Positions 13,493 to 56,029 of a stretch of 64,000 nt of DNA are shown here, in pieces (positions within the stretch are counted from its first letter, which is position 1; every line of letters begins with the position of its first letter). The stretch covers positions 62,001 to 126,000 of the forward strand of contig NW_026863230.1 of assembly GCF_026571515.1 (NCBI RefSeq), written 5' to 3'. This DNA comes from Ruditapes philippinarum (taxonomy: Eukaryota). The notes beneath the pieces were generated by a model. It was not told the DNA's origin. It was given only the letters and a program-made list of their open reading frames with translations, and did not search any database. The translations under genes and the position numbers were made by a program.

Positions 13493-13522
13493 GTAAAGCA
13501 TTTGTAAAACAGCAAACTTGCA

Positions 13523-14099: not shown

Positions 14100-14100
14100 A

Positions 14101-14498
14101 TCTTGTACCGTGGGTGTAATTGTAAGCTGAAAGCTTAAATAAAGTTATTATCATAACGTATTTTCGGCCAATATACACTTTGACTTTTTTCTACAAATTA
14201 AAGTCATATGTTTGTGTCAATTGTTTTATTTAGGTAAAATTGATAATATCTGTCATATGTTTGTGCCAATTGTTTTATTCATGTAAAAAGAATAAAATAT
14301 TATGGAATATGGTAGATTATGCAAGAACAAATGTTTAACATTTGTTTGCGGTTTAGATCGGAATATCCGTCCCTAGGGAACCCGCCAATGGGCGGATCCC
14401 CTCGGATCGTATATTCCGATCCGAACCGCAACATATGACAGATATTATCAATTTGTTTATTTAAGCTTTCAGCTTACAAATACACCCACGGTACAAGA
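14101..14498. repeat. Nested palindrome: inverted duplication flanking a Crypton-type hairpin (14344-14432)
   Basis: 14101-14143 is the inverse of 14456-14498, and 14241-14262 is the inverse of 14429-14450. The inner hairpin is gcggtttagatcggaatat...atattccgatccgaaccgc. Confidence 0.7.
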
Positions 14499-17164
14499 CA
14501 GCACTTTTCTGACGCAGAATAGATATGTAGAGCTGCAAAATTTGGCTGTTTGCGAAAAATTGAAAGATCTTGTAGAAGCAAAATAAATTGGAAAACAAGT
14601 AGAATTTAAATGATTGGTCGATTTAAAATAAATCTTAGACATAGACAGATGTAAAAAAAATAGTTCCATTGCGCCGAGAATATGTCCATATAAATATTGG
14701 TGGGAATCGCACTGTTTGAATGATTTTGAGGACGAACTGTTCTGTTATTTTACAAATAGCAAAAGTATGTCTGTAATATCAAATAATAGTTATGAATAAA
14801 TTGTTAAATATAATCAATTTCTAGTTAAAGAAAAAACTACCTAATTTAACAAAAGATTGCAAATTTGCATTGTAGGTCTTCTGTAACTTAATGGTTAAGC
14901 TAAGCGTACTTTTCTTTTACGATTGAGAGAGAACCGCCTCTCTGATAGAATGCGTGGTTAAGGCTTTGTAACTGGTAATTTAATGATTCGTTCTTATGTC
15001 GCAGGGAAGTGATATTGATCATAGTTGTCCTGGTTCCCTTTCCCCCGTCAACGAAGACTTAATGCTAGCATACAGAGTAAGCATCATATTACATTTGGTG
15101 TATTTAAACAGAAGCTGAGCAAATGAAGTAAGTGACCTCAATCGTTACCTCTCTCAACTGTTTAAGAACGATCTACTATAGACTAGCTCTTTGGCACGTT
15201 ATTTATTAGGTAAATACAATTAGATAATGATAAAAAGAATATGACATACAGACATGACACTATCACTTCTCTTAAACGTTATTTTTAATTCCTTAAAGCT
15301 CGGTGACATGTTGTACATCAGAAAAGCTTTTTATAAGAAAATTTGAAAACAGTGTTATTTTGTTAAAATAAAAAAAAAGATACACAAAATCAAGTCTAAA
15401 TTCTCCCCATTGCTAAATAGACAAATGCATATCAACAAGACTACCAGACGCCGCTTTAGTATTTAGACTCTCTAAAAGGATAACTACACGGGTCGTGACA
15501 GGCTGTAAAATTCGTTTGCTGCGAAACTTGTGGTTAATGGGTGATTAAAATCAGAAATATTTCCGGACTGACATACAAATTATTTTGAATATTGATCGAA
15601 CTGACAGGTTTAGTTGTCCCTGAATGTATCAAAAGCGTTAGTTCACAAATGTTGATAATTTCTTGTCGTCAAGAAAATTTCTCGTCGAACGGTACAAATA
15701 ATATGCAGTCGTCAAGTAGAAAATAATATTTATATTAAACAATTGATGAAAGTATAAAATTAATATGTCTGTCCCATGAATTCAACCTTAATTCTTTTAG
15801 GCCTTATATATGTCGTTGAATTTTATTAAAACTCCTAGTTTTGAGAACTTGATTTGCATTTCCACATCTAAAAAGCGTTCATTAAACTATAATAAACCCT
15901 CATCGGCTTGATAAAATTATCCTTGGAATTGTTAAAATATTCAAAATATTGCGCAAAATTACCAGCAAGTATACCTGTTTATCTTTATGAGTAACATATT
16001 TTCATACTTTCCAGTATATTTCAGCATAATGATTATGAAGACAAGCCTCGGACATTTCTTGAGAGTGTTTTCTCTTCTATATACTCGTATATATACTTTC
16101 TGTTTGAAGCAGATTTATTTTGTAAATTCCGCCGTAGTTTTACATAGTTCTTATCAATTACTATGGTTTCATTTCGGTTTACCATATACTCATTATTACC
16201 AGCATCAAATTGTTTTCCTTACGTGTTAAAATCGTTTGAAAATTATAAGACGCCGCGTTCGCGCGACAGCTAGTAGATATACATTTGTCTTTTCAGCAAT
16301 AAGGATTTTTTTTTATTTTATTTTATTTTCTTGTTTTAACAAAATGACACTGTTTGCAAATTCTCTAATAAAATACAACATGTTACCGAGCTTGAAGCAT
16401 TAAAATTAACGTTTAACTAAAGTGATAGGGTCATGTTTGAATATTATATTTTTTTATAATTATCTAATTTGTTTTACCTTATAAATAACGTGTCAATGAG
16501 CCAGTCTTTATTCTAATGACAGGAAAAAAATTCTGTCAGGAATCAAAAGGTTTGACTAAAATACGCCACGGAGATTTTTTTGGCGCTACGGGCGTAACGG
16601 TAATGTTTTTTTGCAAAACAAGCAAAACGTGTGCTTATTCGTGAAAATAATTAACATTAAAGTCATAAAACAGAAATTATTAAGTGAAAAAGTAAGTTTG
16701 GTTTTAAAATGTATCACAATTATTTGTGGATTTAAAAAACTATCGAACATATTTATAAGCGATTGACTACCAAACATATAATTAATTAAGCTACAGCCAT
16801 AACTACCAATATAAGTGTAATTGCAGGCGGCGGCATTCTGTCCGATTCGACCATTCATATTATATAGGCCTCTATCTCTGCAAATTTCTATAAGATGTTT
16901 ACCGTTCTAATCAATAACTGTGTCTTAGAATGATCTAAAATTAACTTGCACATTATCTTCAGCAAGTTATTAATGTAAAATAAGCATGCATACGACTCAT
17001 TTTGCACATTGAACAATTTTTTAAAAATTCAAGCCATAATAGATCCGACACTGTCACTTTCCTTATGCCTCTTAACCTTCATCGGGAGGCATACAGATTT
17101 TGCGCCGTCCTTCTCTCCAAATTTGTGTCCGCACCGTAACTTTGTCATTTATAGGTGGATTTTA

Positions 17165-20769: not shown

Positions 20770-20857
20770 AAAGTGATAATCGGCCCGCTATATAAATGAT
20801 GGCTCAAGGGGCATCAGCTCGAGAATCATAATTTATTCAGGTCCGATTATCACTTTT
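20770..20857. mobile_element. Degenerate Crypton-type hairpin
   Basis: aaagtgataatcggccc...ggtccgattatcacttt inverted arms. Confidence 0.5.
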
Positions 20858-30000: not shown

Positions 30001-30979
30001 AGTTTTATTAGTACATGTACAAATTACGATGTCATTATAATTTATTCAAAAATAAAAAAATCATAGAAATTAGCAAGGTAATTAAAGAAAGGACCTGCAA
30101 AAGGATAAGGGTATAGGAAAACGGGTCAAAGCTACGTGAAAGGGAGGTGACACTTTTAGCCCAAACATGTTCATTTTAAACGAGGAATCCCCGCCAAGCA
30201 AAATTCTTGCTATGATTGATATGGCTACAAGAGGTAATATTAGTGAAGCGCAGAAATGATCATGTAGATGCATTAAGAAAGTAAACTAAATGACAATAAC
30301 AAAAGTGCTTAATGTCTGAAAGGACATGTTATTGCAAAATTCTATTGCCCTCACCAGATTGATATAGTAAACGTTCTGAATGTTGCTGAATGAATGATTA
30401 GTTGTTCGAAAACAGGGCTGCGTTTCATAAAATGTCTTATGTGTATCCTAAGTCCTGGGACGTAAATCCAACTTAAGGACAAACTTAAAACCGTGGCTGT
30501 TAACAAATGATTTTATCTTCAGTTAAAAACTGTAGACTATAATTAAATTCATTTTCCTGATATATATTAAGTTAAGAAATACTACACCAGACCTTTTAAT
30601 GTGTTATCAGTATTGCTATTCAGAAATAAGAAGAGTCTTGATTTATATGAAATGGATGAAACTTACGCTGCAGATATCGCTTTCATTAAAACAACTGTCC
30701 CATCTTTTTTTCGGGTCTGTTGTATAACACCAAAGTTCATCTGAAAAGTTTGATTCACATGACTTACAAAAAATGGCTGTGCGACCTATATGAGTATCTG
30801 TAAACGAATAAATTTCCAATTTGAATGTAGTCAGTAACCGTTTTAACCATTAACCTGATGAGTTTGTATAATTGATTTGTCTTTTAGCTTATTTTCAGTT
30901 TACTTTCTGATTCTTTATCTAACTGGCTACAGAGGGAAATAATGTTCAAATATGAAACTGGGCTAACATTTTGATATAA

Positions 30980-31530
30980 AAAGTATATTCAAGTTTCTTC
31001 TATAAATACAGGATTTCTTTTCATCACGAGTAGCCACGGGTGAAATATGATAATTTTCATACCACAAGCTAAAAATAAACACTGTTTTAAAAGAAAAAAA
31101 ACGTTTTTTCGGTTTATTGTTTATAACCAAATGGATAGGAATAATTCCTTTTAAATTTTGTGTTTTGGATGAATTAAGAAGAAATTAGTCCGTCAAGACA
31201 CAAGTGAAAATACGGAAAATATATTTCACTGCAGTGAAAATATATTGCTAAAGTGAAAAAAAAATACTGCCTCCGTTGGTCGAGGGGTAAGAGTCGATGA
31301 CTTTTAATCAAGTAACCTCTCTGGTGTGGGTTCGATCCCCGGGAGATGCTTTGGTAGTTTAGCACGGAGGAAAGTAGTCTAGTACTGGTGCAACTCTTCA
31401 GGAACAATGGTTAGGAAACTACCCGCCTATATGACTGAAATGCTGTTGGTAAAAGGCGATGGAAATTAAGAATTTGCATTTTATTTCTTTAATATTGTTC
31501 AATATTTTATTTATAAGTATAAAATAGATA
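30980..31530 (-). mobile_element. Non-autonomous derivative of Crypton B, between the two kringle exons
   Basis: The left part matches the B hairpin (tattcaagtttctt...cacgagtagccacgggtgaaatatg...tttcataccac). The right part matches the B 5' end (gaagaaattagtccgtcaagacacaagtgaaaatacggaaaatatatttcactgcagtgaaaa...ataagtata). No ORF. Confidence 0.8.
31268..31470 (+). mobile_element. tRNA-derived SINE (second family) nested in the non-autonomous Crypton
   Basis: gcctccgttggtcgaggggtaagagtc (A-box-like), gggttcgatcccc (B-box), tail ...cgcctatatgactgaaatgctgttg. Confidence 0.7.
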
Positions 31531-34500
31531 AAAAGATATGGAACGTAGAAAATCTAATTTATTAAACGTACTCTACATTTTATGTTTTAACATTCTGGTC
31601 GTAGTTTGAAAGAAAATAAATTTGTTTGTTTCAATCTCCATCATTTTTCATTTATTCTGTTAATTTCTTTCACCATCACCCGAATGAAGACGACATTTTA
31701 AAGTACTTGTTTAAATTAACACGGTACATCATTTGATGTGATCTTCAATTCTCATCAACATTCGTACTTTTAATAATGAAATTGATTTGAGTTTTATAAA
31801 TGAAATTAAAATCAAGACTCGGGAGCATGGTAAGGGAGGAAGTTGAATAATTTATAAATTGCCCTATCAAGTTGAAATAACTATAAACATAACGAATATT
31901 TCTTATACTATTATGTTTCTAAAACCTTCTTATTACTTATGCAACAATAACTATTTTCATTTATATTTTCAGTTTGTTACATTATTTTGTAATTGTGTTG
32001 GCCCCAATTACCCCTTTAAAGCACACACAGCCCCTTTCCCGCCGTTCAAAATGAACATGTAGATACATTTACTTTCATAAAATACTTGTTGCCGCCAACC
32101 AATTTCTATGGTCGTATCATAATTAGTTATAGTTAGAATTCTTTTATAAACAAATATTTAATAAGAATATCCAGACAATACATTGATATTTTGTATGTAT
32201 TACTATTCGAAAAAGTTATAAAAATGTGCCCATTATAGACAAAACCACTTAACCAGTATACAATGCAGTAAACATTATTATGTTTGTGCGCTTTCTATAT
32301 TTTTTCTTACAATAATTTCTGAACAAACACTGACGACTCAATTTTGTCAAAATATAAATATTCTAAATTTTTAAAAATCTATAAATGAATACAAAGTAAG
32401 TAATGATTGTAAGTGTGGACTTACAAGTTCCATCAGCGTCTCTACAATAGTTATGAGCATCTTTTACGGAAGCGTCATTCGGGAAGTCACCGGGAATGTT
32501 TCGTGCATGTTCGTGAGGCTGTTGACTGTCCCAGCGCTGACATGTATATCCGCCCAGTGTCACGTTCAGAGTACCACTGTATGATGGGGCGTCAATGCAT
32601 TCTTCTGTACACATTTAATCAATAATAGTAACAAAGTTTATGAAATTTTCAAATAGATCTTCACTGGAAAAAATGTGATGCTTTCATTTTTCCTTAGATT
32701 TTGTTAATTATCATGATTATAATTATGTGTTTTACTGATTTTTATCCTTTTACTCTTTATATTATAATCTGGATTTAGCCGAATAAACTTATCTATATAA
32801 AATACATATAGATGATGTTTTATTGGGGGAGGTGTAAGAATGAAACCGTTTAAATAATCTAAAAACACATGATCTAAATAGACATAAGCAGGATTTTAAT
32901 CGAAAATTATTATTTTTGTATTGTCGGGTAGACGAATGTTTATCCGGTTCGCTACAAAAGTGAATCTTGGCTCGCTAATGTTTGCCGAGAAACACTTTCC
33001 CTGTCACCGAATAAACCTTCTCATTTCCGATACCAACTATGTTTTATCTACAATAAACATAATTATCTTGAATAACGTAATGTCAACAGTATATTGAGAA
33101 ATAAATATTTCAGTTTGTCTATCTTTTGATTTGTTCGATGGGGCGTAGCCCCCAAGCATTAATCAGATTGCTAAGTGTTTTGATATTCTTTCTATTTTGT
33201 ATCATAGTCAAACATACAAACACGTTCCCTGTTGTCACAAAATGAAACCCCCATAACAAGTAACCAATAAACTAGCATCTGAATATGATATTTCTGTCGC
33301 TTTCCTTTATTTGTCGTCACAATAAGTAAACCCCAGCAAAAATGATCCAATCAAAGGGCATGCTCTGGAGTGAGGGTAACTAATACCTGCACTCCAGTTT
33401 ACGTACTGTGCATGTATATAACTGTTGAATAAATTTAATGCTATGTTATGTTATTTATACGATTTATACGATTTTCAACGAAAATGTCCCCAACCTATGA
33501 TACAACTCATTAATAGTTCCTAGCTGTATTGAAAAGTAAGCAATAAATAATTCAGTTACCTACAGAAAAGCATAAAAATATATATATATATTTTTATACG
33601 ATCTATTTAATATTTATCTATTGAACCGCCTGCAGCCCTACACTAAAATAGTTCAATGATCCGCGGAATTTGTAATATTAATAATATGTAATGTGTTATA
33701 TTGTAATTAATATTTTTGAGCTCTGTTTAAAAGAAATGATGCAAGAAATAGTTTAGCTCTATTGAAAAGTGAACAATAAATATTACTGTACACTTATCTT
33801 GAGAATCATGTACATTCTTAGTAATCTACAGAAGAGCGAAAAAATATGTCTGTTACTTTTAATAAGGTACTATTAAAGTAAGTGTTTATATACGATTAAA
33901 AATCCCTTACCTCCATTTATACTAGTTATAACATAGGCAGCAATCATGGTATAAATCTGTTTCATTCTGAGAGTCATCCCTGCTGGCTTTGAAGAAAGAG
34001 AATTAGACAATAGAACTTGCCGCAGAAACTCTGTAATATATTCGCAATGGAGGTATCGTTTCTGTATGGACAATTCCAATTGGTTAGTCTATAATAGGTA
34101 TTTACTTGAATGTATATGATTTACTAGATATTGGATTTGGAAAACATTAAACTGACAATATTGTATTAAACTTCCATACAGAAATCCATAATTATTAATT
34201 ACCTTTAGAAATATCAAACATGTGTTTGATAATGTTTGATAATTGATTCAGAGCAAGTTAGATGTTAAAAAGCTAATGTGTAGTAAAGGTAGCAAAATGT
34301 TAACTTCTATACAAAATACTAACTCACTATAAATAATCGCCAACAAAGAAAAAATAAGGAGGAAAATTCCTCTATATGGAAAATGAGTATATTATGAAAC
34401 TGTTACAAGGTACCAAAAGTAAAAAAAGGTTTTGAGAAATACAAATTATATTTTTCTTGGGCATTTTGAGCCTTGGAAAGGTTTATATAAAACAATTTGG

Positions 34501-37086
34501 GTTTGCTAGCTTGTCACTTCAATGATTATCTGCATATAAAGATTAATTTCAGTTTTCTACGTTTTCCGTTTGTGTTTTTTTTATTTATAATGAGATTTGT
34601 TATTAAGCCCACAAGGCATTGTCAAAACCGGCATTTATATAAATGTTACAGTGTTAAACAAAGGGATAGTATGGTAACATTCAAAATTTTTTGTTATTGT
34701 TGTACACCAGCAGACTGGTCAGTTCTGCAAAATGTCAGAATGATTAAAGGCACATAAAATGAATCCATATCAGTACTGAAATATAAAAACAAATATTAAG
34801 TGGGGTTTTTTTTTTCTTTGTTTTTTGTTTGTTTTTTTTTTTGTTTTTTTTTTTTGTTAAAATGTCTACGTTCAGCGACAGAAATATTAATAAATTTGCT
34901 GAAATTTTCTGTCGTAGGGTATTTGACGTTGAAATCCGCGCTGGCGTCTTCGAATATTTTTATGCGAGAAAGCTATCCAGCTAGCTTACAGAACGTCGAT
35001 CGTTCTATTCAGGTGCGGTATTTGTGCCTGAAATAAAGCTGGCTGGAAAGTCGAAATATAGTGTTCGTGATTTTGAATTCTGTAGCTTTTATTACGGATT
35101 GTTGTTTGTTATCAAAAGAAAACCTCTTACATATTGTCTAATAGTTGACCATAAGCAATATGTAGATGTTTCTGTGATGACATCAATAAATTACGTAAAT
35201 CATGATAACCTTACACGTTTTGTAAATTTAATTAAAGGTAAAACTGTCCACATGTCTAAAAGTCGATTAATGCACATTAACTTAATCCATCTATTTTATC
35301 CAATTTTGAAACATATTCTTCAGTGATATTTCTTAGCCCCTTCCAACATTTCTCTTACCTACACATTTATAGATATGTCACAGTCCCATAATTTCACGAC
35401 AGAGTCTTTCATGCCTTCAAAATGTTGATCAAGTATTTAATGATCATAATGTACAAAAACAGTTATCAGTTAAATCACTTCGAATTTAAACTCTAGATTG
35501 ACATTATCATATGTAAGACATTGTTGATATTTTCAGTCACGTGTTCTTTTCTGAAATAAGATTTTTTCAGTCATATGTTCTTTGTTAAAATTAAATTATG
35601 AGTAATGTGTTCTTTGCTTAAGTGTTATTTTTCGTCATGTGTTCTTTTCGTCCATCATAGTTTCAGTTATGTAATTTTTGCTGTTATCATATTTTCAATT
35701 GGCTATAATTGTTTTCAATTATGTCTTTATTGTATTATAATATTTCAGTGATGTGATCCAGTTGAACCAACTGAAAGCTGAAGATAATTCTTTAAGTATT
35801 ATATTGAATATTTTACACAGTTAAAGGTATAATCATTCTAGATTTTAGGCTGAATGAAATTTGCTACAGTTTTCAAGTCCACATAAAGGCATAATGTAAA
35901 CTCATTTTTAGAATTATTTAAACTTTCCAGTATCTTAAAATGTGGTAGCTGAAACATTTGAAGTGAAGGAATAAGATATGATTAATCTTGTTTTTCCTGA
36001 GTTATCTACGTATCTGTAAATCAGGTTTTCTGTAACATTAATAATTATTACGTTCATTCTGTATTTCATGGTTCCTTATTTATTAATGGAGTGTGTCACA
36101 GTTGTCACTCATAGAAATATCTCTCAGTCTCACCCTTTGTTCAAACTTCTAGCATCTCATTTCCTCTGCATAATAGGCATCAATACGTAAGTATATTAAT
36201 GAATTTATATCTAACATATATGATGTGTGGCTTAAAGTGGTTATTGTTAAACAGGTTAGGATCACTCTTCACCAGGCTGTTGGTATAAGACTTTGGATCC
36301 TTTTATGTGAGTAAGCTGTCTCAGGTAGTTTACGTAAACGCTGGTTGATCTACTGGTTAATGCAACTTGAATAATGCATGATAGGATGATTTTACTAATA
36401 TAACTACGAAACTGTCATAATTATGATTGTTAATTGGTATAACTTTAAAAAAGAATCACAACCAACAAAGAAAATAACTATTGTGAAGCACCTGTTTCTT
36501 CTGTGTTTTCTGTGAGTGTGGGTATATACTTTGTTATCATGCCATTACTATGACAACTGCCTGATAAAGCCTGTCTGAGAACATCAACCTTTCTCAGTCA
36601 GTGACTTGAGAACACTTTTCCATGCTTAAACCTATGGAAAAGTCAGAGGATATCAGATTTTTCAAGCACCTCCCACTTTTTGCCGGACTACTTTCACAAT
36701 GTAAACAGCTTAAAGCATTGCAAAAAATAAAAAGATAAAACAGCCTAAATAAAACATATTTATTAAAAAAAATAATGTTACAAAAATAAATAATGATTTT
36801 TAAATGATTTAATTTTAATTAAAGGTATATTTACACAAATTCTTATTAAGATGCTTACATCTTTAAAAAACATCTTCTGCTCTTAGACATCTAAAACAAC
36901 AACAACAACAATAATATTAATAATATTAAATAATTAAAAAAAAAAGATGAATTCTTAGTAACAAAATCAGAGTAAGGACAGGAAAAAACATTAATTATAT
37001 TTACATCATTCTCAAGTTTCACAAAGATAATTATAAATAATACAAATAAGCACTTTTTAATCTTAATTTGACAATCCTTCAACTTT

Positions 37087-39387
37087 ATGGCAACGTTCAA
37101 TTTGCACTGGGATGATTTGTTGGAAGTTCAAATGATGAATATTGAAGAAATTTATGACAAGAACGAATTTAAAGTCAACACTGGTATTGATCCATCAATC
37201 TTTGATGAGGAATTTGATGAAGAAAAACAATACAATGTTACAAAGTTATTGACTGATTCTCAGCTGTCCGAGTATTCGAAGACTCCTGTTTCAACTGAAT
37301 GTCTTCAAATTCCTGAAACTGCTGCTCAATGTTCTCAAGCAGCATCTGATCAATATCCTCAAGTTGATGAAAATCACAGTGCTGTGCCTGTCCTTACTGA
37401 TGTTGCCTCTGAAAATATTAACAAAGGCTTTATAATGGTTGATATGGACTCTGTAAAGGCATTTAACGAGTCGGAAAAAAATCAGCATACAAAACGTAAA
37501 ACTAACCAACATATAAACAGGCTAAAAACTTTTCTCAAACTAAAAAACGAAACACGAGATTTCCATTCCATCCCAATGACGGAGCTGGATGAGCTTCTTG
37601 CCATGTTCCTTCTCTCCATTAAGAAAGAAGATGGAACAGACTACGAGCCGAGTAGTTTATGAGGGTACATATCTACATTTGACAGAGTTCTCCAGGAAAA
37701 TGGGTACCAATTTACCATAGCCAAAAGTTCAAGACAAGGATTTCCCCTAACAAATCAGACTAAATCGGTAATTACAATTTATTACATCTATTCAATAATC
37801 TTTTGGAAATTAAATAAATCCAGCAAAAAAGTGAATTTCAAGATACATGTATTTCATCATTATAAACTAATTCCCCCCCTGGACTTGTTTCACTTATAAT
37901 TAAAAAAAAATTGCCTGTAATGAATTTTTGCTTTTTAATTTTAAATGATCTTAATTTTCTACAAATAATCATGATATAAATCAGCTATTTTTCAAACAAC
38001 AAAATGATTAGCATGTAAATTTCAGGCAAAAACAAAAAATCTGAAAAAATCAGGTAAAGGCAACAAAGAAAATGCTGCCCAACCAATAACAGATGAAGAG
38101 ATTGACAGGCTTTATGATACCGGCCAACTAGGTCTTTCTTCACCACAGTCAATCATCAACACTTTGTGGTTAACATTTACCATACATTTCGGCATGAGAA
38201 GTGTAGAAGAACACTATCACTTATGGTAAATTTAAATGTCATCTCTATTAATTAAAAAACAGTTAATGAGTAAGATTATTAAACCTAAAAAATTAAAATG
38301 CATAAAAAACTTTTTTATTTCAAAATCACTTATCTCAAAATCTTCTAGTAACGTTTTTCTGGAACGTAAACTTTAAGGATGTTCAGAATGCCATTCAAAA
38401 TGAAATTTCATGTGGCCGAGCTTCACCGTTTCACAACCTGAAATTGGAATAAATTTATAATTTTAGTTGCATACTTAAAACTAAAAAAAAAAAAGGCATA
38501 AATTAACATGTATTTATATTAAAAATTGCACATATAAAAATATTGTTTTCAGTTGGGGCGACGTACAAGTAAAGATCGATGCGGAGGGCACTGAGTTTCT
38601 GGAACTTACAGAGCGCCAGACTAAAACACGCACTGGAGACAGCGGTGGTTCTAGGAAGGTTCCTCCACGTATGTGGTCTAGTGGAGATGAGCGGGATCCG
38701 GTATCTGCCTACAGATACTATGCGGCAAAGCGTCCACATAGATTCAGTCGGGATTCGGACCCATTTTATTTGGCACCAAGAACAACCCCACCTACAGAAT
38801 TTGACCAATGGTTTTTAAAACAGCGGGTTGGAATAAAAAAAATTGGCACACTTATGAAAACAATGACTGTAAAATCAGGCATAACACGGCACCTTACCAA
38901 CCATTCTGCCAGAAAACACACTATACAAAAGCTCATGGATTCGGACCAGGCACCTACTGATATTATGCAGATCACTGGGCATGAATGTGTACAAAGCATA
39001 ATCAATTACAGCAATATGTCTTTGAAAAAGCAAAAAACTTGCTCTAATATCTTAAGCAGATCTGCCACTTCATTGAGATCAATTAATACAAATAAATCTG
39101 CAACATGTACAAATGCTTTTTACCTTGACAATAGCACTTCTGTCCCAATGCAGTCTCCGCTGCCTGTTTTGCCATCTACACAAATCGAACCTCCTGTCTC
39201 TGCTCCAAACACTCAGTCTCAGGTAGTCAATGTTCCAACTGTTAATTACCCCACCCATTTCACTCAGGCTGGAAATGCTCCAGGTCATGTGCAGTCAATG
39301 TTTTTTGGTGCTACTGTCCATATACAGAATTTTAATATGTACAGCATGCCTCCAAGGAACGATCAAGACAGTAGCAGTCGTAATTGA
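37087..39387 (+). CDS. Crypton tyrosine recombinase (DUF3504/ZMYM-QRICH1-KCTD1-like), 3 exons, one in-frame TGA
   Basis: Exons 37087-37767, 38026-38225 and 38553-39387 (GT-AG, phases consistent). Motifs KKEDGTDYEPSSL*GYIST, GKGNKENAAQPIT, HFGMRS, WGDV, ERQTKTRTG, TNHSARK, ITGH, INYS give a complete R-K-H-R-H-Y catalytic set. Confidence 0.9.
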
Positions 39388-39913
39388 ACAGTTTTAAAAT
39401 ATTTCCGCTGAACAGCTGAGGTGAACAGGTGAACATGTGACCGAGACTCCTTCGTCCAAATCCGTTATGTTAACTGTTAAACTGTTAATTTCTGGCTAAC
39501 AGTTTGTAAAACATTGTTCTTTTTGTGTTAATCTCCTTAATAGCTTTAAAAATCACACTTGTTATCCTGTTAAAGCGCAATTAAATTCTCCAGTTTATGT
39601 CTGTTTCAGCCGGCGGCCATTTGCTAAATTTGTTGAAATGGTAATATGTTCCTACGCCAGATCAGCACTGATGATGTTTATTGTTGGTATTGTTTAATTG
39701 ACTTTGCTAAATATTTATGATAATACACAGTAAATAAATTGTTAAAGCAAATTGTACCAAAAATTGTGTTGTGTTATAAAATTATTGGTAAAAACCCTCG
39801 GACTACTTTTTTGGCGTATAACCCTCTTGTACAAAGTGGTTACCGTATTTTCAGAAATTAGCGCACCGAATTAAAAAAAAAAGATACAAAATCATAATAG
39901 TGGCATGATAAAA

Positions 39914-40063
39914 AGAATAACAGGTTACTGTCTTTTGAGAAAGGGATTTCTCAGACTCGGCTAGATATGGTCCGGAAGGGGCTCGGCAAGCCTCGCCCCT
40001 TCCAGGACCATATCTAACCTCGTCTGAGAAACCCTTTCTCAAAAGACAGTAACCTGTTATTCT
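39914..40063. repeat. 150-bp terminal hairpin of Crypton A
   Basis: agaataacaggttactgtcttttgagaaaggg...ggggctcggcaagcctcgcccc...ccctttctcaaaagacagtaacctgttattct; arms of about 69 bp, near-perfect. Confidence 0.95.
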
Positions 40064-42248
40064 CTATTTCTAACAGTCATAACCAATGTTATGGCAGAGA
40101 CAAGAATATGGCCAATGAAAGAAAATAAGCTAGCACACAATAAAAACTTATCATTGATAGGTAAGCTGATAAATTACTAGTCCAGGGGAGCCTATTTCTA
40201 CAAAAAGAAAATCAATATTTTATTTATAAATAATTATTTGGCTCAATAAATTAAATATGATAAACATGCTGTCAGATTATAAATTGACAAGATGCCAATT
40301 CTGTTATTTATGATATGAAATTCATGTTATTTGATGTGTACAGGTTGATGACTGAAAGTCTCTGTCTATAACCATTTAACTGCTTAAAAGTGTAATAATC
40401 TTGCAATAAATAAATTAAGGGTATAATGTTTATAAGTCAGTATTAATTTTCTCTGTCTGGTGCGACACAGTCACGTGACCATTTTAATGAATGTTCTTTT
40501 TACAAACATAAAGGTTGAAACCTGAGTGCGAGTATGAAAGGATAGTATTCAAATACATCAGTGCCCATTGAATAAACGTAATGTAGAAACAATTTTGAAA
40601 CAATTAACATACATGTACAATGAACAATTTGTTTTATACAGACGAGGTTTAGAGTTATGGCTGGGTAGATAAAACTATGAATATTGGGATCAAAGGAATG
40701 TTTGAGCTCATCAGGCGAGGGTATGTTAATAGCTTGCTAGAGATATTTTGTGGTAATTTTTAAAGACATTCTTTTTTGTAATTAAGTCAAAGTATGGTAA
40801 TTTATAGATTATCATTTCCTTTAATTGACTCATTTACTCATTTTTAATGTCAAATTAAGTTGAATTGTTATAATTATACTTCAAAGGATCGGAGTCCATA
40901 ATGATGACTGACCAATTATTGATATTGAAACATGTTACAATACAAATACAAAACAACAATAACTACAATTTAAAAAAACTGCCACTCTCTTTTTTAATAA
41001 TTCAACATTAGTAATACGTTCCGAGGGAAATGTATAAAAATTTTCGTTGTCCATTCAGATTATTGAATATTTATATAATATTCAGGTTTAAAATTGAACG
41101 CAAAAATGGCATATCGTCAAGTTATTTTGACTTTTTACTTGTTCACTTACCATAATTACCTTTATGAGCATTTTATCACTTTATTGCCTATGATTGTTAT
41201 TAAAATCATATTATGAGTTTAAAAAGTAATGTTTCAGTTTACACATATTTATTTTAACTTAATAATGAAATAAGTTTATGTAAATTATGTTGATAACGTT
41301 CAAGTCCTAACTTTCTGAAACAAGCCAGCCAACATCATTCAGTTTTGCCGGGTTACCATTTCCGTGGTGATGAACTCTTATTATACAATCCCATTAACAA
41401 TTAGTAGACTTATACTTTGGTTAGGGCAATTACTTTTATAAAATATAAAATGTCATAAAATGTTTCATGTGATATGAGATTTTATTAATTGTTTCAAAAA
41501 ATGCCAGAGTGCGACCATTGTGCATGCATGTTCTTTGGTAAAGTTTATATATATTTTATGTCAATTTGACAACAAATGAGATATTCTTTTTATCAGGGCA
41601 AGTAGGTCTTACACATGAAGTTTTCAACAAATTTAAAGATCCTGTATGTTGTATTTAAGGTTGTTACCACACTTAAGTGAAATTGTATATGTGTATAAAA
41701 TTATGCTTCTAAAACAAATTTCAAACATCGAAGAATATGTAAAATATGTACTGCAAATATGTGTCCACATTATATAATCATTGAAATATGTGTATTTATT
41801 ACTTATCGAAGAATTGACTTACACTTTATGGAAAATAAATTTCCAATAACCTCCCATTATTAATATGAAATACAAATTCGTAAATATCTTTACAAATATT
41901 GCTTTTTGGAACTTACAATATTGATAAATCTTCATAATAAGCATTATATTTATGATGTAAAACCATTAAAGAATTAGTTACAAGATTTTTAACAGTAAGG
42001 GTTCTATAGATGCCCAACCACAGTCGTTTTTCTGTGTCATTATGGTAGTTATGGATATTAACATATTGACTCTATACAGAGATACAAAATTCATTGCTAG
42101 CAATGCTGATTATTTTTCAAGGTCACAGGACATAATATAGCCCCTAAAATGCAGAGCATCATAGTGCATTTTGTATGATTATGTATAGATTATGTATGCA
42201 CAATATGTTTTCATTTTTTAATGTGAATGGTGTATGGTTGCATGATAA

Positions 42249-43082
42249 GCAAGAGCTGTCGGTAGGACAGCAATGCTCGACTATTCTTAGTGCTTGATAG
42301 TAAAAAAAGCCTTGATTAAAAGGTCAAATTTTCTAAGTAAAGAAAAAGGCAAAATTTTTCTTTAAATCCATATTACAGTTATAGGCCTTGGAGAGAGTCT
42401 TATTATGCTCTCAAAGAAAAGTATAAAATTTCAACATGTTTCAAAGCCTTATGTCAATGAATTTTGAGGTATTACAAAAACTTTAACGTAAATTCTAAGT
42501 CGAAAAAGGGGCATAATTTTGTCAAAATGCTTGATAGAGTTACCTCCTCCTGTCCACATGTTGGAGTCATGATGGTGAATAAGTGTGCAATGTTTCAAAG
42601 CCATATGTCAATGGACTTTGAAAATATTTGAGGTATTACAAAAACTTTAATGTAAATTCTAAGTTGTTAAAAGGGGCATAATTCTGTCAAAATGCTTTAT
42701 TGATTTACCTCCTCCTGTCTACAGGTTGAGGTCATGAAGGTGAACAAGTGTGCAAAATTTCAAAGCCATATGTCAATGGACTTTGAAAATATTTGAGGTA
42801 TTACAAAAACTTTAACGTAAATTCTAAGTCGGAAAAGGGGCATAATTCTGTCAAAATGCTTGATAGAGTTACCTCCTCCTGTCTACAGGTTGGGGTAATG
42901 ATGATGAACAAGTGTGCAAAGTTTCAAAGCCATGTGTCAATGGACTTTGAAAATATTAAAACTATTACAAAAACTTTAACATAAGTGGTTACGCCGACGC
43001 AGACGCCGACGCCGACACCGACGCCGACGCTCGGGTGACTACAATAGCTTTACTTATTCTTATCGAATAGTCGAGCTAAAAA
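42249..43082 (-). mobile_element. Complete non-autonomous Helentron-type element (HINE) with about 165-bp internal tandem repeats
   Basis: Subterminal IR gctcgactattc / gaatagtcgagc, (GACGCC)n microsatellite at about 42992-43030, three units starting about 42465, 42629 and 42794, a terminal hairpin gagctgtc-ggtag-gacagc, and an A-run at the end. Confidence 0.85.
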
Positions 43083-43090
43083 GTAAATAT

Positions 43091-46000
43091 ATAGAGGATA
43101 TTCAAGTTTTTTCTTTAAATACGTAATTTATTTTCATTGAGTGGTATGAAAATAAATAGTTCACGAGTGGCGGTAGCGACGAGTGTAATATGAAACTTTT
43201 CATACCACGAGATGAAAATGAATTACGTATCTAAAGAAAAAACTTTAAATTTCTGTTTATTATATACTTTTTCTCATTTTCAACCTTACGATTGACAAGA
43301 CTTCCCCTTTAATTTTGTGTATTGCCTGAACCGCACAACGACTTTAGCTCTTTTTTTATTTATAACGCTCTAAAAAAATTCTTCCGCTAGATTGGGATAA
43401 TTCACCTTTGAGAACGATTTATTAATTTTAGGTAACTTTTAGATTAACAGCAGATTTTTATTCTATTAATATTAATTTGAAAATTTAAAAATGGTTGTTT
43501 TCAAAAGCTTTAAATTCATCCGCTTCTGGATCATTGTTGACGCCATTTTGCGAAAGAAGGCATGTTGATTAGCAGACACGCATTAATTTGGACAAATTTA
43601 TGTCATTACGGAGGGAGGAATAGGGGAAACACATCTGAAATGTGAGAAAACGTTTATTACAGCATATGAACATCAAATTATAGACTGTCAATATGTGTAT
43701 TAAAATTATAACTTATTTATGTGTTTCAACTGTGCCAAGGGCGACAATCAGTGACATCAGATGATCAACAGATCAAAACATGTGTAACAGTAAAATGTTT
43801 CAAAACAGGAATTAACTTTAATCAACATAATTGGATCACTGATGCTAATCTTCCAAAGACAGTTTATTCTGAGTCAGAGTCTATTGGAAGTATCCTTCGG
43901 CGTTTCCTTACTGGTGGAGAGTTCATGATGGCCTAAACATTTGAATTTGATGTGTTAGACATGTTACTTGTGTGGAAATGGACATTGATATTTCCACTGA
44001 TCTGGTTTCCACTGAAAAAAAACACCTAAAAAGTCATACGGATTCCTGGGAGCCGGTTGTTGAACGTGGTCACTGATATGAGTCTCTGTGTGCTGACGAC
44101 TGGCGTAAACGTGGTGTGGAGCTGAGATATCTCTTGATTTAGTGCAGGTGTTTGGAGGTAATTTACTCAATGTCCTTTAAATATCTTTCTGTTGACTTTC
44201 ATTCAACGTGCTGTAATTGTTGACAATGTTTACATTTTTGTGGCCACTAATCTGAATGATGTGGTTGGGTGCAACGCCAGCATAATTTAATGTCTGTACC
44301 ATTCCTTTCCTTACACTGTAAATAAATGGTATTTTTTAATTTTTTTATACATTAAACTTTAAAGCAAAGTCAATCAAATTTTTAAGTCAATCACAATATT
44401 TTTAAATCTAATTATTAAACAAAAGAAGCTAGCAGCATTTAATGTAATTGAAAATTCATTAATTAAAAAAATAAAGAAATATTATAGATATTTGACGACA
44501 TATAGAACACTTTATTTTATGTAATCATTTTTTCATGTATAACATTTTTTTAAATTGCCGACAGAATTACTTATGAGGAATTTTGTTGTCGACTTGTTTT
44601 CAAATGAAATTCTAATAGTAAATCTACCGTAATAATGTTCGCACAAACTTTCAAATTAATAAAACAGTGAGGACGGTTAAATTGGTTTTTTTTTATTTTA
44701 TTGAAATATATTTTAAAGAAGATTTCTCTGATTTATGTTAAAGAAAGTTGTAAAAGTAATTTTTGCATGATTTTTCAAATATATAAAACAAGATTTATGG
44801 TTAAATAGTAATTTACATGCCACAGTTTGTTTTAATTAAGATTTGAAATAAAAATGTGTTTAATTTAATTCAAAAAATAATTTTATATAATTTTTCTAAT
44901 TTGTATACTGTTTATAGGTTTAACATTGTGAAAATATGAATTATTAAAACTTTTTTTCCTATTAATATGTTTAAATTCAATTTTTATTTATTACTTGCCT
45001 GTATGGTGTTAAATTTGGCTTATCTATGTTTGTTGCATGCTTCATATCCTTCATTATGCTGTATATTTTGTTAATCCCCATGGTACATTTCTTATACCAA
45101 GGTTTTTCATTTTCAGGTACGTTAGAAGCTACAGTTAGGAAGAATGGAGAGTTTGGCTCCAACATTGCTTCTTGACGGCTATTAGCAAATTGCTTATATA
45201 AAGCCACTGGACAACGTGCCGGATTTTCAATAACTTCATAAGCTCTTGGCTTTATTTTTCTTTGGTCACGAGGATAAGCCCCAGTCCTAGTTTTGGTTTG
45301 GCGCTCCTGACAATACACCAGATATTCGGAGCCATCATCATCAGACATCAACTTTACATCTCCCCAACAAAGAGAATGAACCTCTGTGCCAGTCCGCATA
45401 CCAATAAAATTGGTGCAAATAAACCACATAGAGTTTTGAAGTGCTCTAGGATTGTTTCCACCAAGCTGGTCAGCTGCATAGAATTTCTCTGCAACATTTT
45501 ACGTCGGATGTTATGGCAGCAGCAGCATTTGGGTTGTTGCCTTTGCCTTGTGATTTTAAGTGTTTTGTTTTTGCTTTCAACACCTGCTTACATTTCTGGA
45601 AAACCTGATCTTTGGATAGTGAAAAGCCATATTGGTTCACATTTAGAAACCTTTGAATGCTTTGGAACTTTGATATTAGAGAGTTTGGCTCATATTCCTG
45701 GCCATCTTTTTTCCTTACTGCATATATAAAACTACTCACATAGGCAGATAACTCTTCAGGAGGGATTTGAAGTATTGGCCTACTTTCAGCCACAGAGACC
45801 AAAATTTCTTGGAATAATTTAATGTCTTGGTCAGTTTTAAATTTAGTATTCTTATTAATGCCATCTTCAAGAAATTTGAAGTAACAAATCGTGGATTACC
45901 AATATTTATTATGTTGCTGACATCTTCATCTTGTTCAGAAGGAAGAACTACCGGTTCATTCTCATTGACATTATTTGGAACTGATTCATCATCCTGTTGC

Positions 46001-46476
46001 AAGATCATAGCTGCCTCAATCAAATGAAAATCAATGTTGGCCAAGAACTCATCTTCTTCATTGTCTATTTCAATGTCTAACTCAATGTTGCTTTCTTGTG
46101 ACATTTTGCAGAAGACAAAACTGATTTTCAAGCTTTTGACATAGTTACTATTAGTCTAATAAGCATCTATTGATACAGATTTTATGTAAGGAATAGAACT
46201 GAATAGAACAGAAATTTGTTAAAGGGACACTCTTTTTTGTACTGAATTGTTTTTGATTATAAAATTATTATAAATTATTTTTTTTCCCTTTTTAAAAAAA
46301 TTATTAAACTGCTGTGAATTTAGAAGAAAGTAGTCCGGCAAAACACCAGTGAAAATACGGAAAATATGTTTCACTGCAGTGAAAAATAAATTTTTACAGT
46401 GAAAATACGGAAAATGAAAATACGCGTTTTATTTCATCAATATTTCTCAATCTTTCATTTATAAGTATATAATAAA
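43091..46476 (-). mobile_element. Crypton tyrosine-recombinase DNA transposon, copy B (different family), full length but degenerate
   Basis: Terminal hairpin about 43091-43255; 14-bp IR tttattatatactt (43256-43269) / aagtatataataaa (46463-46476); recombinase gene inside. Confidence 0.85.
43864..46104 (-). pseudogene. Crypton tyrosine recombinase B, 2 exons, frameshifts and stops
   Basis: Exon 46104-44999: MSQESN...RKKDGQEYEPNSL...GKGNNPNAA.../FIGMRTG...WGDV...ERQTKTRTG...RCPVALYK...LTPY. GC-AG intron. Exon 44315-43864: SVRKGMVQTL...QISGHKNV...NNYS..., ending RKRRRILPIDSDSE*. Confidence 0.85.
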
Positions 46477-49400
46477 TGAACTAATTGTATGGGTATGTAA
46501 ATTTGCTTTCAGACAACTTTGTAATATTAGTTTCAGATGTATCAAATAATTATCCCAAAAAGCCATTGATATAGACTTTTGTTATCATCTTACATTTTGC
46601 TATGATTTATTTCAGATAATGCAGATAAGATCACTGGTGACTGGGAGTTGCAAGGTTGGAAGCTGAGCTAGTTAAGGAAAGACAAAAAAGTGGTTGCTGG
46701 TAGGTCAAGGGATATAACTCCTGCTGCTTTTCAGAACAAAAGGACAAATATTCTTGGCAGAAAAATCGTAAGGAATTCTTGAAAAAAAAATCGAATATGT
46801 CAGTGTGACCATTAATTGCATTTGAACTCCACAAGTTATCTGAGTCATTATTATAGGTCACTGACCAAGGCCCATAATTGTCCAAAATTGTTACAGAATC
46901 AAACCTCTTATGAATGACTTTTGCATGTTATTTTTATTTCTTGTAGTTGCAAATTCTAATAATTGCAGGTTATGACAAAATTATCTTAAAACAAATGTAA
47001 ATACAAAGGTCGTCTTTATGATAATTTTTGTATATTTACACGGTATACAGGCAATGGAAACTTCTCATCAAAAGGACCAAATTTACAGTCAGTTCTTACG
47101 TCAATCATATTTACATGCAGTTTGTCACACGCCTCATCTACGCCGAGTACGCATTCCATTCCCGCCAAACTACTCAGCTTTGTTGACAGGAACGCCCCAA
47201 AAAGGTAAGGTTAGCCTAATTTTATTATTTATTATAAATGGCAGTCATTGGAACTTTTTTTCCTTTTGCGATTTGGTTTTCTTTCAAACATAAATTGAGT
47301 CCTTGATTTTTGTAGAAAAACAAAACAAGAACAATATTTTGCTATAAAAAAGGCAAGGCTATTTGCCTGCTGCTTTGCATATCGGTTTTATTTTAGAAGG
47401 AAATAATCATTGATTTTAACACAATTTTCCTTATGATACAAAATTGATCAGGAATCCTATTTACTGTAAGAGAGTTAAGCTTTAGACCATTTTTACAAAT
47501 CTTTCTTCTGAAAGCCATTGTAATTTGTTAAACCACAGGTATGTTAGACTAATTTTACTTTTTGAGTTTTTCAGACTCCACTTGAGGAGAATCATATATT
47601 GAAAATGTTGCCAGACAAGCCGACAACCATGGATATGATGATTGTTACAAAAATCTTTAGCCAACGGGGAACCAGAAGTCTGTGGATGTTTCTATATTCA
47701 AATTTCACCATTTTAATGTTTAAATGGTGAATTCTGCTTAAGCCGGTGCTAGGGGGCGTAGACGGTAACTTACACTTTCCATTGCCGTCCATGAACAGGC
47801 TCAATCAAACCGAGCCTGCAACATTTTACAGTTATGCCGTGTTGGGCTTTCTTCAAAGATTCTGTTTTTCACTATTTCTATTTTATTTTATTTGGAGACT
47901 TTGAAGTTCAGTACATTTTGAACCAGAGGCGAGAAAAGTGGTAGACGAGTAAGTTTTACTGTGTTATTAGCTACATTGTACATGGAAGGGCAAGGCAATT
48001 CTTCACTACCTGATACTACTTTATTGATGCAAACTTTATATTTCATTATTGCCTGAAGGTATTCACTTTAAACTTTAAGAAGTGTGTTTGTAATGATACC
48101 TGATATATAGTTGCTAATTAATGACAAAGACCCATAATTCCAGCAATAAATATATTTCGACTGCCTGAAACGCATTTCTGAATTTGAAAGATCATGATTT
48201 TGCCTACAAGATCTTCCTTGTTTTAGTGTTTTGGCTTTTGCTGTTTGTTACTAAATTTTTGTTTTTGATATTGAAATCCCTAACCTTTGAATGGATTGTG
48301 CCAAATTCAAAGATGGGCAAATCAATTATTCAATTTCAGCAAGTTTAAAGGTTGATAAGTACAAATGGTCTAAATTGTCTAATTGTAATGAATGAAAGTT
48401 GCTTTTGTTAGGTATGTAAGTATATGAGGAAAAGTCTTCTGAAACAAATAACGTAAATTGACAGTAATGAAAATATATGTCATGTGAAAGTCCTGACAAT
48501 ACTCTGTGAAATCATGTAGCAATTTTGGTCAATTAACGATAATAAAATATCATTTTTATAGAATATATTATCCACCAAGAACAGTAGCGGTTTAACTGCT
48601 ATCAAATTTTATAAGGTGTAAACTCGTTACTGCATTAAGGTGATAATATCTGAAAATTGATTATCTTTGCTTTAATCTAGGCTAAGCTTTTTTTCATTAG
48701 ATTAAGAAAATCTTTGATATCTAACTGTTTTTTTTTCAAATTAAGGCATAACTCATTCTGGTTTTTTGGACAGTCCGATATAGATTTTATGGTTATATAA
48801 AAATGAAAATTTAGTGTGGATCGGGCAGCAGTAAGCCATTTCCAAATTGGTTAATACTTTAAGTAAAGGCTTGTTTGTTAAGCTTTTAGCATTGAAAGAG
48901 ATAAAAATAAAAATCTAAATTACCATTCTGAAAATTTGAAATATTATTGGCTCGTTATGTTGAATGTATTAAATATTTAAATATTTGTTGTTTTTTTCAT
49001 TTGAGGCAATAAACAAAAAACACACACTTTTCATCCCAGCATATAACCTGACTTGATTATACTAATATAATGTTATTTTAAGATTGTAATGTAAGCATTG
49101 ATGCAATTTCTATAGCTTTCTTTATATAAGAAGTTTATCATTAGAAAAGGGAATAATTATATATTAACAAATTAAAGATGCTGTATTTTGCTTATACAGA
49201 AATAAAGGGGAGTTTACTTTGTTTGCTTTAGACACTGACATTTTTGTGTTTTAAAGAAACATGAGAATTGATGTTTTTGTCATAAAATTAATCCTTCTCC
49301 CGTAAGATTTTTGCATTACAAAATCCTTATGTGGATTGAATATTTCATTGGATGTTTATTGGTTATTGAATGAGTAACTGTTGCAATGTATATGTGGATT

Positions 49401-52967: not shown

Positions 52968-53877
52968 CCCTACTGGTTTTGGATAAAGAAGAGCAAATGT
53001 TATTTTGCCACAAAAACTCTCTAATTTATTCACAATGGAAGTATTGTTCCTGTATTGACCATTCTAAATGTTTATTCTATAATTAGCTTTATTATCAGGT
53101 GCTTTTCATTGTTTTTTTTCCTCGAGACTAAATATGGTTAGCTTTACATATATACATTCATATTATTTTCTCCTTTTACTCCACGCGTTTTATGATATGC
53201 ATTTTGATAAGATGCGCAGCTGGTCTGATAACTTAACGAGAAAAACAAAAACTAATCAATTGCCATAATATTATGAGAATTGTTGTTGCAAGATGACAAT
53301 GATATGATTTTATTGTCATGTAATCAAAAACAAACTAAAAGTGAAATAGAAAACCTTTTTTTATATTTTTTTTCTGGTCCTTAGGGGTCATTGAGTTCAG
53401 CATTTTTACGTGTTGAGAATTGAGTACTGCTAAGGCCGGTGCTAGGGGCGTGAAGGATGTTGCACATTTTCAATACCCCTCATGTATAGTCTCAATCAAA
53501 CCGAGTCTGCAATTTTCATTTAATTTTGCTGTTTTAATGCTTCCGAGGGATCAATTTTACCAGATATTTGTATGATCATATATTTCTGTCGCAAGCAAAA
53601 CTTTAAATTTTCACAATGATCGTCTCACTTGTTACGTTTTAACTAGTTAACTGTTTTAATAATAGATATTTATATGATTAACTAGATATTGTATTTGGTA
53701 AACAATAAAATGACAAACTTATATCTAACTTCCAACAACACTCAAACACGCCTATAACCGCTAACATTTACCAGTTATATTAAAGACATATTAAGTCTCA
53801 GAAATCCATAATTACTAAATTCCTTAGAAATGTCAAACGGGTGTTTAATAATGTTTTTAAACTTGATTTAAAGCATG

Positions 53878-54290
53878 TACCAAGATATAAGACAAATGCA
53901 TATTAAAAAATATTTTTAGAAGAGACCTAATGTAATTAAATTTAGAGAACTATTTGAATCTGAAAATATTTGGATTGTTAAAAATTTAGCAATGTTTGTT
54001 TACAAAAGTCTTGATAAAAGAGACAGTGAACTGTATCAACGATATCCTTGTCCTCTCACTATTTCATATATATGAGGCTTATATCAAGTCATTGATGTTA
54101 TCATATACATTTTATATGTATCACAAATATAATAGACTAGATATGTTGTAATGAATATGTATTGACTTTTTAATAGAACTATTTTATGTATACCATGCTA
54201 AATCATGCCATTGATGTTAATATCCAACTGCTGATTGTATTATTACTATGTACTGATGGTCATATTGCCTTTGTATGAATAAAGTTTATC
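53878..54290 (+). mobile_element. 3' end of an L2/CR1-like LINE, present only in the duplicate copy
   Basis: DIRQMHIKKYF*KRPNVIKFRELFESENIWIVKNLAMFVYKSLDKR, then a UTR ending aataaagtttatct. Absent at the homologous site near 34255. Confidence 0.65.
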
Positions 54291-56029
54291 TAGATGTTTA
54301 ACAGCTGAGGAAAGTAGCACTAAATGTGCAATAATATGTATCAAAAATAAAAAAGTATACTTCCAGACTTCCATACAAAATACTTATTCACTATAATTAT
54401 ATAAATCGTCAACAAAGCAAAAGATGCAAAAAATGTTCATCTATATGAAAAACGGGTAATTTTATGAAACTGTAAAAAAGGTTTTGAAATATGTATATAT
54501 AATAATTTTAAGTGTTTATTATCTAAGGAAAACTGCGTTGAATACGACTTATGCATCATAAAAGAAGCAAAATCTTAATTACTTCCATTAAGCGTTAAAT
54601 TACTATAAAATTAATGTATTTATTGGATAAAACCAGAAGGAATAACAGATAGTTCATGTAAGTTGCCAATGAGTAACTTCTGGGAACTAAAGATGGACAC
54701 CAAAAATTAAAAAAACAACAATTGAGAAATTTAAATAAAATCATTTCCTGATGATTAATGGGCCTTTAAGTACATGTAAAGAAGTATGAAATCCCCAAAT
54801 TCTCTTTGATACATTAAAAGATACAAATGGTAATTTACCAAATACCCAGTAAAAATGTTAAAAATGTGTTGTTAGAATTAGATTTTTATATAATTATATG
54901 GAATAAAATTCTGGAAACAAAGTGATCCCTCGGAAGCATTAATCACAACAAAATAACATAAGAATTGCAGACTCGGTTTGATTGAGTCTGTACATGAGGG
55001 ATAATGAACAAGTGCAATATCCCTCACGCCCTCTAGCACCGGCTTGAGCGGTACTCAATTCTCAACAATTTATAGTGTTGGCATCAATGATCCTAAAGGA
55101 CCAGAAAATATAACAACACTGAAGTGAAGTACGGGGCAACTTTTTACGGCTGCCACACGGCACTTGAAGACAATATTACAACTGTTCATCTAAATACTAT
55201 TGAACAACATATAAACGGAAGGCAACTGCAATAGAGAAATACTGAACTCAGTACTTTTTGTAACTTAGAGAGATGTAATTTATGTATCAAGAAAGTTTAT
55301 ATGCTCATATTTTCATTGTCGAGGTTAGCTGAATTGACTTCATATTTCAAAAGATTGACTGTCAAAATGGTGTTTGACCAACAGTTGATATATATTAGAA
55401 AATGTAAAGAATAAAATTATAAATCTGCCTTAAATATAAAAAGACTGCCCCTTCTTTTTATATTATTTATATCATTTGTATAAGTACATGTATTTCCGTG
55501 TTAAAATTACTTGTGTAACACATGTTTATCTAGATATTATTGTTCATGGCATTATGGAATAAATACATATCATTAATGATTTGTAAAAATTTTGGTAGCT
55601 TTCTACAAATACATTTCTATATTCAGCGATTCAACTACTTAATTCATTTGTTCAAATGTGCATAATTGTAATGTATCATACCTTTTTGCAGTTTGTATTG
55701 TACCGCTAAAATATTACTTGACGATGGATATGTTTTAGCCAATAAACGTCAGTTTCTGTCATACTTCAAAAGGATTTTTTAATATCTATTGATTATAATG
55801 TATAAACTACCATATCAGTTAAATCATATAAGTAAGCCATTCTTGATCATATTTTCAGTCAAGAGTTCTCTGCTGTTATCATACTTTCAGTCATGTTTTC
55901 TTAGATTTTATCATTATTTTCAGTTGCAAATATGTCTTCATTGTTTTATTATTTCAGTCATGTGTTTATTGTTTTATTATACATCTTTTGAATTTCAATC
56001 AGGTTTTATTTTATTTTATTTATAAGTCA

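Follow-up and report, generated by a model that had tools for sequence, protein, structure and literature searches.

What could keep one short word of DNA unchanged in transposons that have very different recombinases? The question is raised by a 64,000-nucleotide stretch of the genome of the clam Ruditapes philippinarum (contig NW_026863230.1 of assembly GCF_026571515.1, positions 62,001 to 126,000; hereinafter the window, from the first letter of which all coordinates are counted), which harbors two full-length but broken CryptonA transposons, element A (36534..40067, + strand) and element B (43091..46475, - strand). The initial annotation of the window reported an identical 18-bp motif upstream of both recombinase genes and proposed that it was a conserved cis-site, with recombinase binding, a host factor or a promoter element as possible explanations. 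We found that, on the sequence evidence, the motif contains a cis-element that is real and conserved, belongs to known CryptonA transposons and has a broader range than first noted; the conserved unit is shorter than the 18-mer and is present at the hairpin end of the elements as well. Among the explanations proposed, the evidence leans to a host factor, for which the word would be a promoter element of the left end.

A shared word in two divergent CryptonA elements

The recombinases of A and B both score above the cut-off with PF12012 (DUF3504; 32.1 and 74.8 bits, respectively), and 104 of 263 residues are identical between them (~40%); no further recombinase-like coding stretches were detected in the window. 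The gene of A (37087..39387, +) consists of three exons and encodes the complete catalytic R-K-H-R-H-Y set, with a premature stop at 37660-37662, and that of B (44141..46104, -) carries two frameshifts and a Tyr in place of the His of the HxxR motif, its main exon being 99% identical to a database protein named from Ruditapes philippinarum. The introns are located at different positions, as initially described (37768-38025 and 38226-38552 in A; 44998-44316, the only intron, in B). The donor of the B intron, at 44998, is GC rather than GT.

Scanning the window for the 18-mer yielded exact copies at 36678-36695 (+) in A and at 46326-46343 (-) in B, the latter one base away from the position first given, and a copy with 3 mismatches at 31181-31198 (-) in a third element, C; shuffled sequence gave a mean of 0.05 matches, and three matches in none of the 100 shuffles. 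The exact copies precede the respective ATG codons (37087 and 46104) by 391 and 221 bp, in agreement with the original estimate of 220-400 bp, and lie 144 and 132 bp from the left ends of the elements. In a direct comparison of the upstream regions of A and B (553 and 372 bp), the 18-mer is the longest common word, and words of at least 17 bp appeared in 0 of 1000 shuffles. After masking of the 18-mer, the longest common word is 12 bp.

The 18-mer itself is, however, not the conserved unit. Its 11-bp core, CGGACTACTTT (36684-36694 in the left-end copy of A), has a third exact match, not listed in the initial annotation, at 39799-39809 (+), beyond the gene of A and ahead of its terminal hairpin, ~65 bp past an AATAAA and 108 bp ahead of the left anchor of the hairpin. 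Other Crypton families do not retain the four outermost bases of the 18-mer (14 positions match in locus L066 and 12 in L034, both described below), and the sequences that flank the core are unrelated between elements, so there is no larger common repeat. All 15 sites that we aligned read RRACTAYTT, these being sites picked for fit, with L028, L036, C and the right-hand B sites excluded as mismatched. Thus, as judged from the aligned sequences, the conserved unit is a 9-12-bp core, RRACTAYTT, with CCGGACTACTTT as the best form (hereinafter, the word).

The ends of the two elements show a common architecture. The right end of A forms a hairpin (39914..40063, +; z = -15.8), the left arm of which is overlapped by an internal mirror copy of the predicted end-to-end junction of the element (39892..39935, +; 3 differences in 44 bp), and the hairpin of B (43089..43272, -) likewise carries a mirror copy of the end junction in its left arm. 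Because the left arm mirrors the joined ends in both elements, the ends could be placed; the inferred left end of A starts with TTAT and the right one ends with CTCTAT. When the two ends of each element were compared, neither inverted nor long direct terminal repeats were found; the left end does recur in inverted orientation, but internally, beside the hairpin. Each element also contains a family-specific palindrome near its left end, at 36613..36643 (+) in A, where it stops 40 bp short of the motif core, and at 46365..46388 (-) in B, where it stops 27 bp short (shuffle p 0.08). The outer terminus ATAGAGRATA, initially described as common to A and B, is indeed present at 40058-40067 (-) and 43091-43100 (+); it recurs, however, in hairpin-ended Crypton loci of both groups considered below and therefore is not special to these two elements.

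The word in other Crypton families

To place the word in a wider context, we used 80 metagenome loci, the best of the 164 that were confirmed. Quick protein trees of the recombinases contain three supported mollusc-linked clades, two of which hold A and B, and most other loci group with cnidarian-named proteins; "mollusc-linked" denotes here only a grouping with mollusc-named proteins and says nothing further on the hosts of the contigs, and the clade of B is tied to molluscs solely via B's own family.

The exact core, set in advance as the query, has two matches in the 80 loci, in L034 and L066, both in the sense orientation and upstream of the gene, compared with 0.004 matches expected in the 43 upstream regions and 0.11 over the loci as a whole. 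A variant, GGAACTACTTT, occupies the same place in L083 and in L040, where it stands beside a GC box. Together, these bring the left copy to 4 of the 7 mollusc-linked loci with upstream DNA. Upstream of the genes in the other 37 loci, which are mostly of the coral type and include many near-copies, the motif was not found (0/37), whereas CCAAT boxes, the sites of NF-Y, are present in 30; by contrast, CCAAT boxes were found in none of the 7 mollusc-linked loci. Two loci that are unplaced in the tree and lack the motif (L065 and L070) were counted among the others, and two ATG positions are approximate. In A, B, L034, L066 and L083, a palindrome peculiar to the family lies 10-40 bp ahead of the core, an arrangement that is not significant in B, and palindromes are present in motif-less families too. 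A multiple DNA alignment of five left ends failed to align the motif and was not used.

Several observations on these loci stand apart from the core itself. Upstream of the genes of L034 and L083, a second common word, AAGGGAGACAA, adjoins the motif on either strand; A and B lack it. Palindromes of the form TTTCAC-(2-4 bases)-GTGAAA occur near the left ends of coral-type families (e.g., L009, L013 and L015) and in B (46365-46388), and are candidate recombinase or repressor sites. No relatives of the recombinases were detected in viral contigs; seven viral loci that match 16 bp of the motif had no recombinase match and were treated as chance. In prokaryote genomes, a single coral-type element was found, in a bacterial bin, with the motif absent from the stretches examined. 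A seemingly complete coral-type Crypton, L088, which has a hairpin as well as CCAAT boxes, lies on a contig filed as a bacterial bin and is likely animal DNA.

The right ends were analyzed in 8 mollusc-linked families with contigs that reach the hairpin or come near it; pattern hits in several of these had been seen beforehand, and the families were therefore not selected blind. An unseeded motif search recovered the word in all 8 right ends with a score of 82.7, whereas 30 shuffles of equal effort reached at most 75.8, and in leave-one-out analysis, p was at most 0.035 for 7 of the 8. The distance from the word to the hairpin anchor is 122-149 bp in 6 of 7 families, 188 bp in L028 and 108 bp in A; an AATAAA precedes the right-end copy by 18-78 bp in 5 of the 8 outside families and by 65 bp in A. 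A matrix derived exclusively from the outside loci ranked position 39798 first on the sense strand of A and 14668 (-) first in the whole window. The form CCGGACTACTTT scores only 6.9 with the right-end matrix, and the left copies of L034 and L066 reach no significance with it (p 0.48 and 0.30), so the support for these two copies is the exact-match test; an enlarged matrix was built in part from sites retrieved with the core of the window itself, which makes its ranking of the A and B left copies circular. Both copies are present in L034 and L040, as they are in A.

Ahead of the hairpin in 10 other clusters (L024 was dropped, as the Crypton end is missing from its hairpin), G[AG]ACTAYTT was not found (0/10), and the shorter ACTAYTTT was found in 2 (p 0.037). 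Over whole loci, G[AG]ACTA[CT]TT shows 11 sense matches and 1 antisense match in the 15 mollusc-linked loci versus 7 and 7 in the 65 others. The presence, position and direction of the word, and its recurrence across families with proteins 37-52% identical to those of A and B, are direct observations: the core reappears in further Crypton families at corresponding positions and in a single orientation, and its unrelated flanks argue against a separate small repeat inserted in each element.

Copy number and short derivatives

Four of the 24 listed read runs were mapped to positions 36000-47000. The depth of raw reads is ~15-33 in the interior of A, compared with ~2-5 in the single-copy flank, and 4-11 in the interior of B, and the bin with the left end of B reaches ~1,675, which as a rough estimate translates into hundreds of copies or more. 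In two runs (X5 and X6), loose read ends fall at 46476, next to the left end of B. No empty-site joint was present among the joints listed, and the element ends were deduced with the help of the internal junction copy and of a tandem junction in L048. In the latter locus (2370-2560), a right end runs straight into a second left end, head-to-tail, two bases longer than the internal mirror copy.

The reads also revealed an abundant short derivative of each element. In the derivative of A (joint 36615 to 39645), which is supported by 63 reads and by contigs from three runs, the left motif and its palindrome are gone and the right copy remains. In the derivative of B (joint 43272 to 46316, 320 reads and contigs in two runs; variant 43280 to 46326), the left motif is kept, with the break 0-10 bp past it. 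Each derivative thus retains, as directly observed, one copy of the word, and so neither copy alone is needed. Formation of the derivatives by recombination between the direct copies was considered and rejected, the joints falling elsewhere.

Element C (30974..31532, -) is a gene-less relative of B. The initial annotation correctly pointed to a degenerate motif in it, at ~31181; this copy, however, is embedded in a 91-bp block that is 88% identical to B, and we rejected it as independent support, given that it was inherited with the block and is less conserved than the flanks. At 31260-31460, C contains an insertion whose + strand bears a word resembling a tRNA B box, by eye a likely SINE (short interspersed element); ARAGORN predicted no tRNA gene. 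Taken together, the read depth, the joints and element C show that A and B are dispersed multi-copy families with non-autonomous derivatives.

Possible function of the word

We infer that the word is bound by a protein, that this protein probably comes from the host, and that the bound word would serve both as a promoter element of the recombinase gene and to keep the hairpin end open for recombination; we give this explanation a probability of roughly 0.5. Under this scheme, the family-specific palindromes and hairpin arms would be what each recombinase reads, and the unchanging word would be read by something common to the families, most simply a host protein. A promoter role at the left end is suggested by the location of the word among promoter-type words (the GC box of L040 is an example), where coral-type families have CCAAT boxes. 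At the right end, which is the weakest step of the scheme, the bound word might hold the DNA next to the hairpin in an open state or attract a helper.

The main alternative is that the word is an accessory, arm-type site for the Crypton recombinase itself that fixes the direction or order of recombination. Tyrosine recombinases that possess an N-terminal arm-binding domain have, as a rule, such sites near the place of recombination (PMC8138268), and the non-palindromic sequence, the direct orientation near both ends at 100-150 bp from the crossover, and the single copy in both derivative families would all fit, as would the occurrence of ACTAYTTT ahead of the hairpin in 2 of the 10 other clusters; furthermore, monophyly of the motif-bearing clades is not rejected. 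On the opposite side, the word is constant despite protein identity of ~40% and differing palindromes and end sequences. No common N-terminal domain is apparent by eye, the extensions being mostly acidic and mutually unlike, and Pfam recognizes only the QRICH1 core-binding part and DUF3504. Moreover, coral-type families share the recombinase fold, the termini and the hairpin, and yet the full motif is found in 0 of their 10 clusters. These features, along with the split between CCAAT boxes and the word among the upstream regions, point to the host rather than the recombinase, and we consider the arm-type explanation possible but distinctly the less probable of the two.

A purely transcriptional signal, that is, a promoter element on the left and a 3'-processing or termination signal past the poly(A) site on the right, with no part in recombination, appears improbable to us. 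The spacing of right copies behind AATAAA in A and in most of the outside families, and the multiplication of the A derivative despite the loss of its left copy, are compatible with such a signal. However, 3 of the 8 families have no AATAAA within the 300 bp examined, the distance to the hairpin is more regular than that to AATAAA, and the gene-less derivatives and element D (see below) retain a copy. Slightly less probable again is the possibility that the word is a starting point for nicking or unwinding that provides a single strand for folding of the hairpin or for copying of the excised circle: the word is strand-specific and always upstream of the hairpin, A and B contain the mirror copy of the end junction, and the copy number of a CryptonF rose despite excision (PMC9977147), but the elements encode neither a nickase nor a helicase, the word is missing from most coral-type families, and there is no sign here of single-stranded intermediates. 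Finally, coincidence, or the insertion of a small repeat of separate origin into A and B alike, is very improbable in the face of the shuffles, the recurrence in other families in one direction and the lack of a larger common repeat, and this explanation, refuted for the core, stands for the outer four letters alone, which are not kept elsewhere and may be chance in T-rich DNA.

Returning to the host-factor explanation, a THAP-domain factor is, by sequence likeness, the first candidate binder, as a lead only. The half-site of THAP11/HCF-1 in the human M4 promoter motif is RRACTAYR (PMC5006282); the first seven letters of the word agree with it, including the C/T variation at the same position, and M4 is promoter-proximal. 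In addition, 58 THAP genes are reported in Crassostrea (PMC10027918). The word differs from M4 in that it occurs also on the 3' side of the gene.

Several observations weigh against a host-factor site in general or a THAP site in particular. In all 15 aligned sites, the eighth letter is T, where the half-site has R, and a run of T replaces this R and the CCCR half, so that the full M4 is found in 0 of 15; human THAP proteins have limited invertebrate orthologs (PMC13631171). The left copy was not found in 3 of the 7 mollusc-linked loci (L012, L018 and L048), L036, a near-copy of L034, has a change within the core, and L028 fails the leave-one-out test (p 0.41). Within the window, the right-end copy of B is decayed or absent, the possible remnant being CGGAAGAATTTT (43376..43387, -), which lies at the expected distance from the hairpin and was picked by eye with a low matrix score; in C, the motif is less conserved (15/18) than its flanks (46/49), and the core is changed. 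The B derivative does not keep the usual word-to-hairpin distance, the spacing being ~30 bp, and retention of one copy in two derivative families amounts to two cases and not a statistic. Outside Crypton elements, the window contains 5 matches to the word, compared with a shuffle mean of 2.5 and a maximum of 5; with no clear enrichment, nothing here places the word at host promoters. Furthermore, a tree in which the motif-bearing clades are held together is not rejected (p-AU 0.38), so the tree does not separate a word that follows the host from one that follows the element lineage.

Conceivably, the CryptonA elements of molluscs depend on one host protein, possibly a THAP-domain one, that is sited beside both ends, where it would switch on the recombinase and license recombination at the hairpin end; we regard this more specific proposal as tentative, and rather unlikely to hold in full. 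If it holds, the short derivative of B would by itself have scattered hundreds of these sites over the clam genome. Even apart from this proposal, animal Crypton ends have been described as featureless, and a word at fixed places near both ends provides a concrete site to mutate, a bait for the binding protein and a marker with which to find and bound non-autonomous Cryptons in mollusc genomes. A host factor as the binder would help to explain the host range and would make these elements a large source of transposon-spread regulatory sites.

Other features of the window

The site that ranks first in the window, TGGAACTATTTT (14657..14668, -), lies ~205 bp ahead of the hairpin of element D, a Crypton-type structure (~14460-14312) with no coding remnant. 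On the same strand, D (14100-14670) has a copy of the predicted left end after the hairpin, seen as a 43-bp inverted match (14101-14143 with 14456-14498), and looks like a tandem or permuted copy. Imperfect hairpins are found also at 13362-13492, with Crypton-like ends, and at 20770-20856; neither has a strong copy of the motif nearby. A loose look-alike of the 18-mer with more than 3 differences (41344-41363), located between A and B, belongs to no recognized element and is probably due to chance. An Rfam search of 30500-47500 gave no hit.

Abutting the right end of B (~42250-43082), and again at 13518-14100, there is a very high-copy element with internal tandem repeats of ~165 bp, which we take to resemble a Helentron-type non-autonomous element. 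An element of ~1.7 kb with terminal inverted repeats of ~165 bp occupies 53370-55108. Host exons recognized by eye from the translations, at 398-4826 and 32363-32614, include repeated EGF-like exons and a kringle-like exon.

Comparison with known systems

In their single DUF3504 recombinase gene, the lack of terminal inverted repeats and the abundance of non-autonomous derivatives, A and B resemble the animal CryptonA elements described previously (PMC3212892; for Glomhopper CryptonA, PMC13465315). The main text of PMC3212892 reports no terminal repeats in animal Cryptons and does not mention a promoter, hairpin or palindrome, and the account of the Glomhopper element includes neither hairpin nor palindrome (PMC13465315); the parts of these two sources compared here contain no subterminal motif. 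More broadly, our literature searches listed nothing relevant to the motif or to the Crypton end structure; sources outside this comparison that could contain the motif are Additional file 1 of PMC3212892, the alignment figure of PMC5753468 and the Repbase/Dfam entries. The Dfam terminus profiles of CryptonA span the terminal 60 bp (PMC7805219), short of the motif. Crypton-A elements are among the larger sources of new insertions in mollusc genomes (bioRxiv 10.64898/2026.02.10.705023).

Parallels come also from tyrosine recombination in prokaryotes. Like the arm-type sites of lambda/Tn916-class integrases (PMC8138268), the word is short and non-palindromic and lies at some distance from a tyrosine recombinase crossover; unlike these sites, it is eukaryotic, is not accompanied by a recognized arm-binding domain and is one and the same across very different recombinases. 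If the mollusc elements do depend on a host protein beside both ends, they would provide a eukaryotic counterpart of the host accessory factors in bacterial tyrosine recombination. In bacteria, the host accessory sites include the IHF sites and the ArgR boxes.

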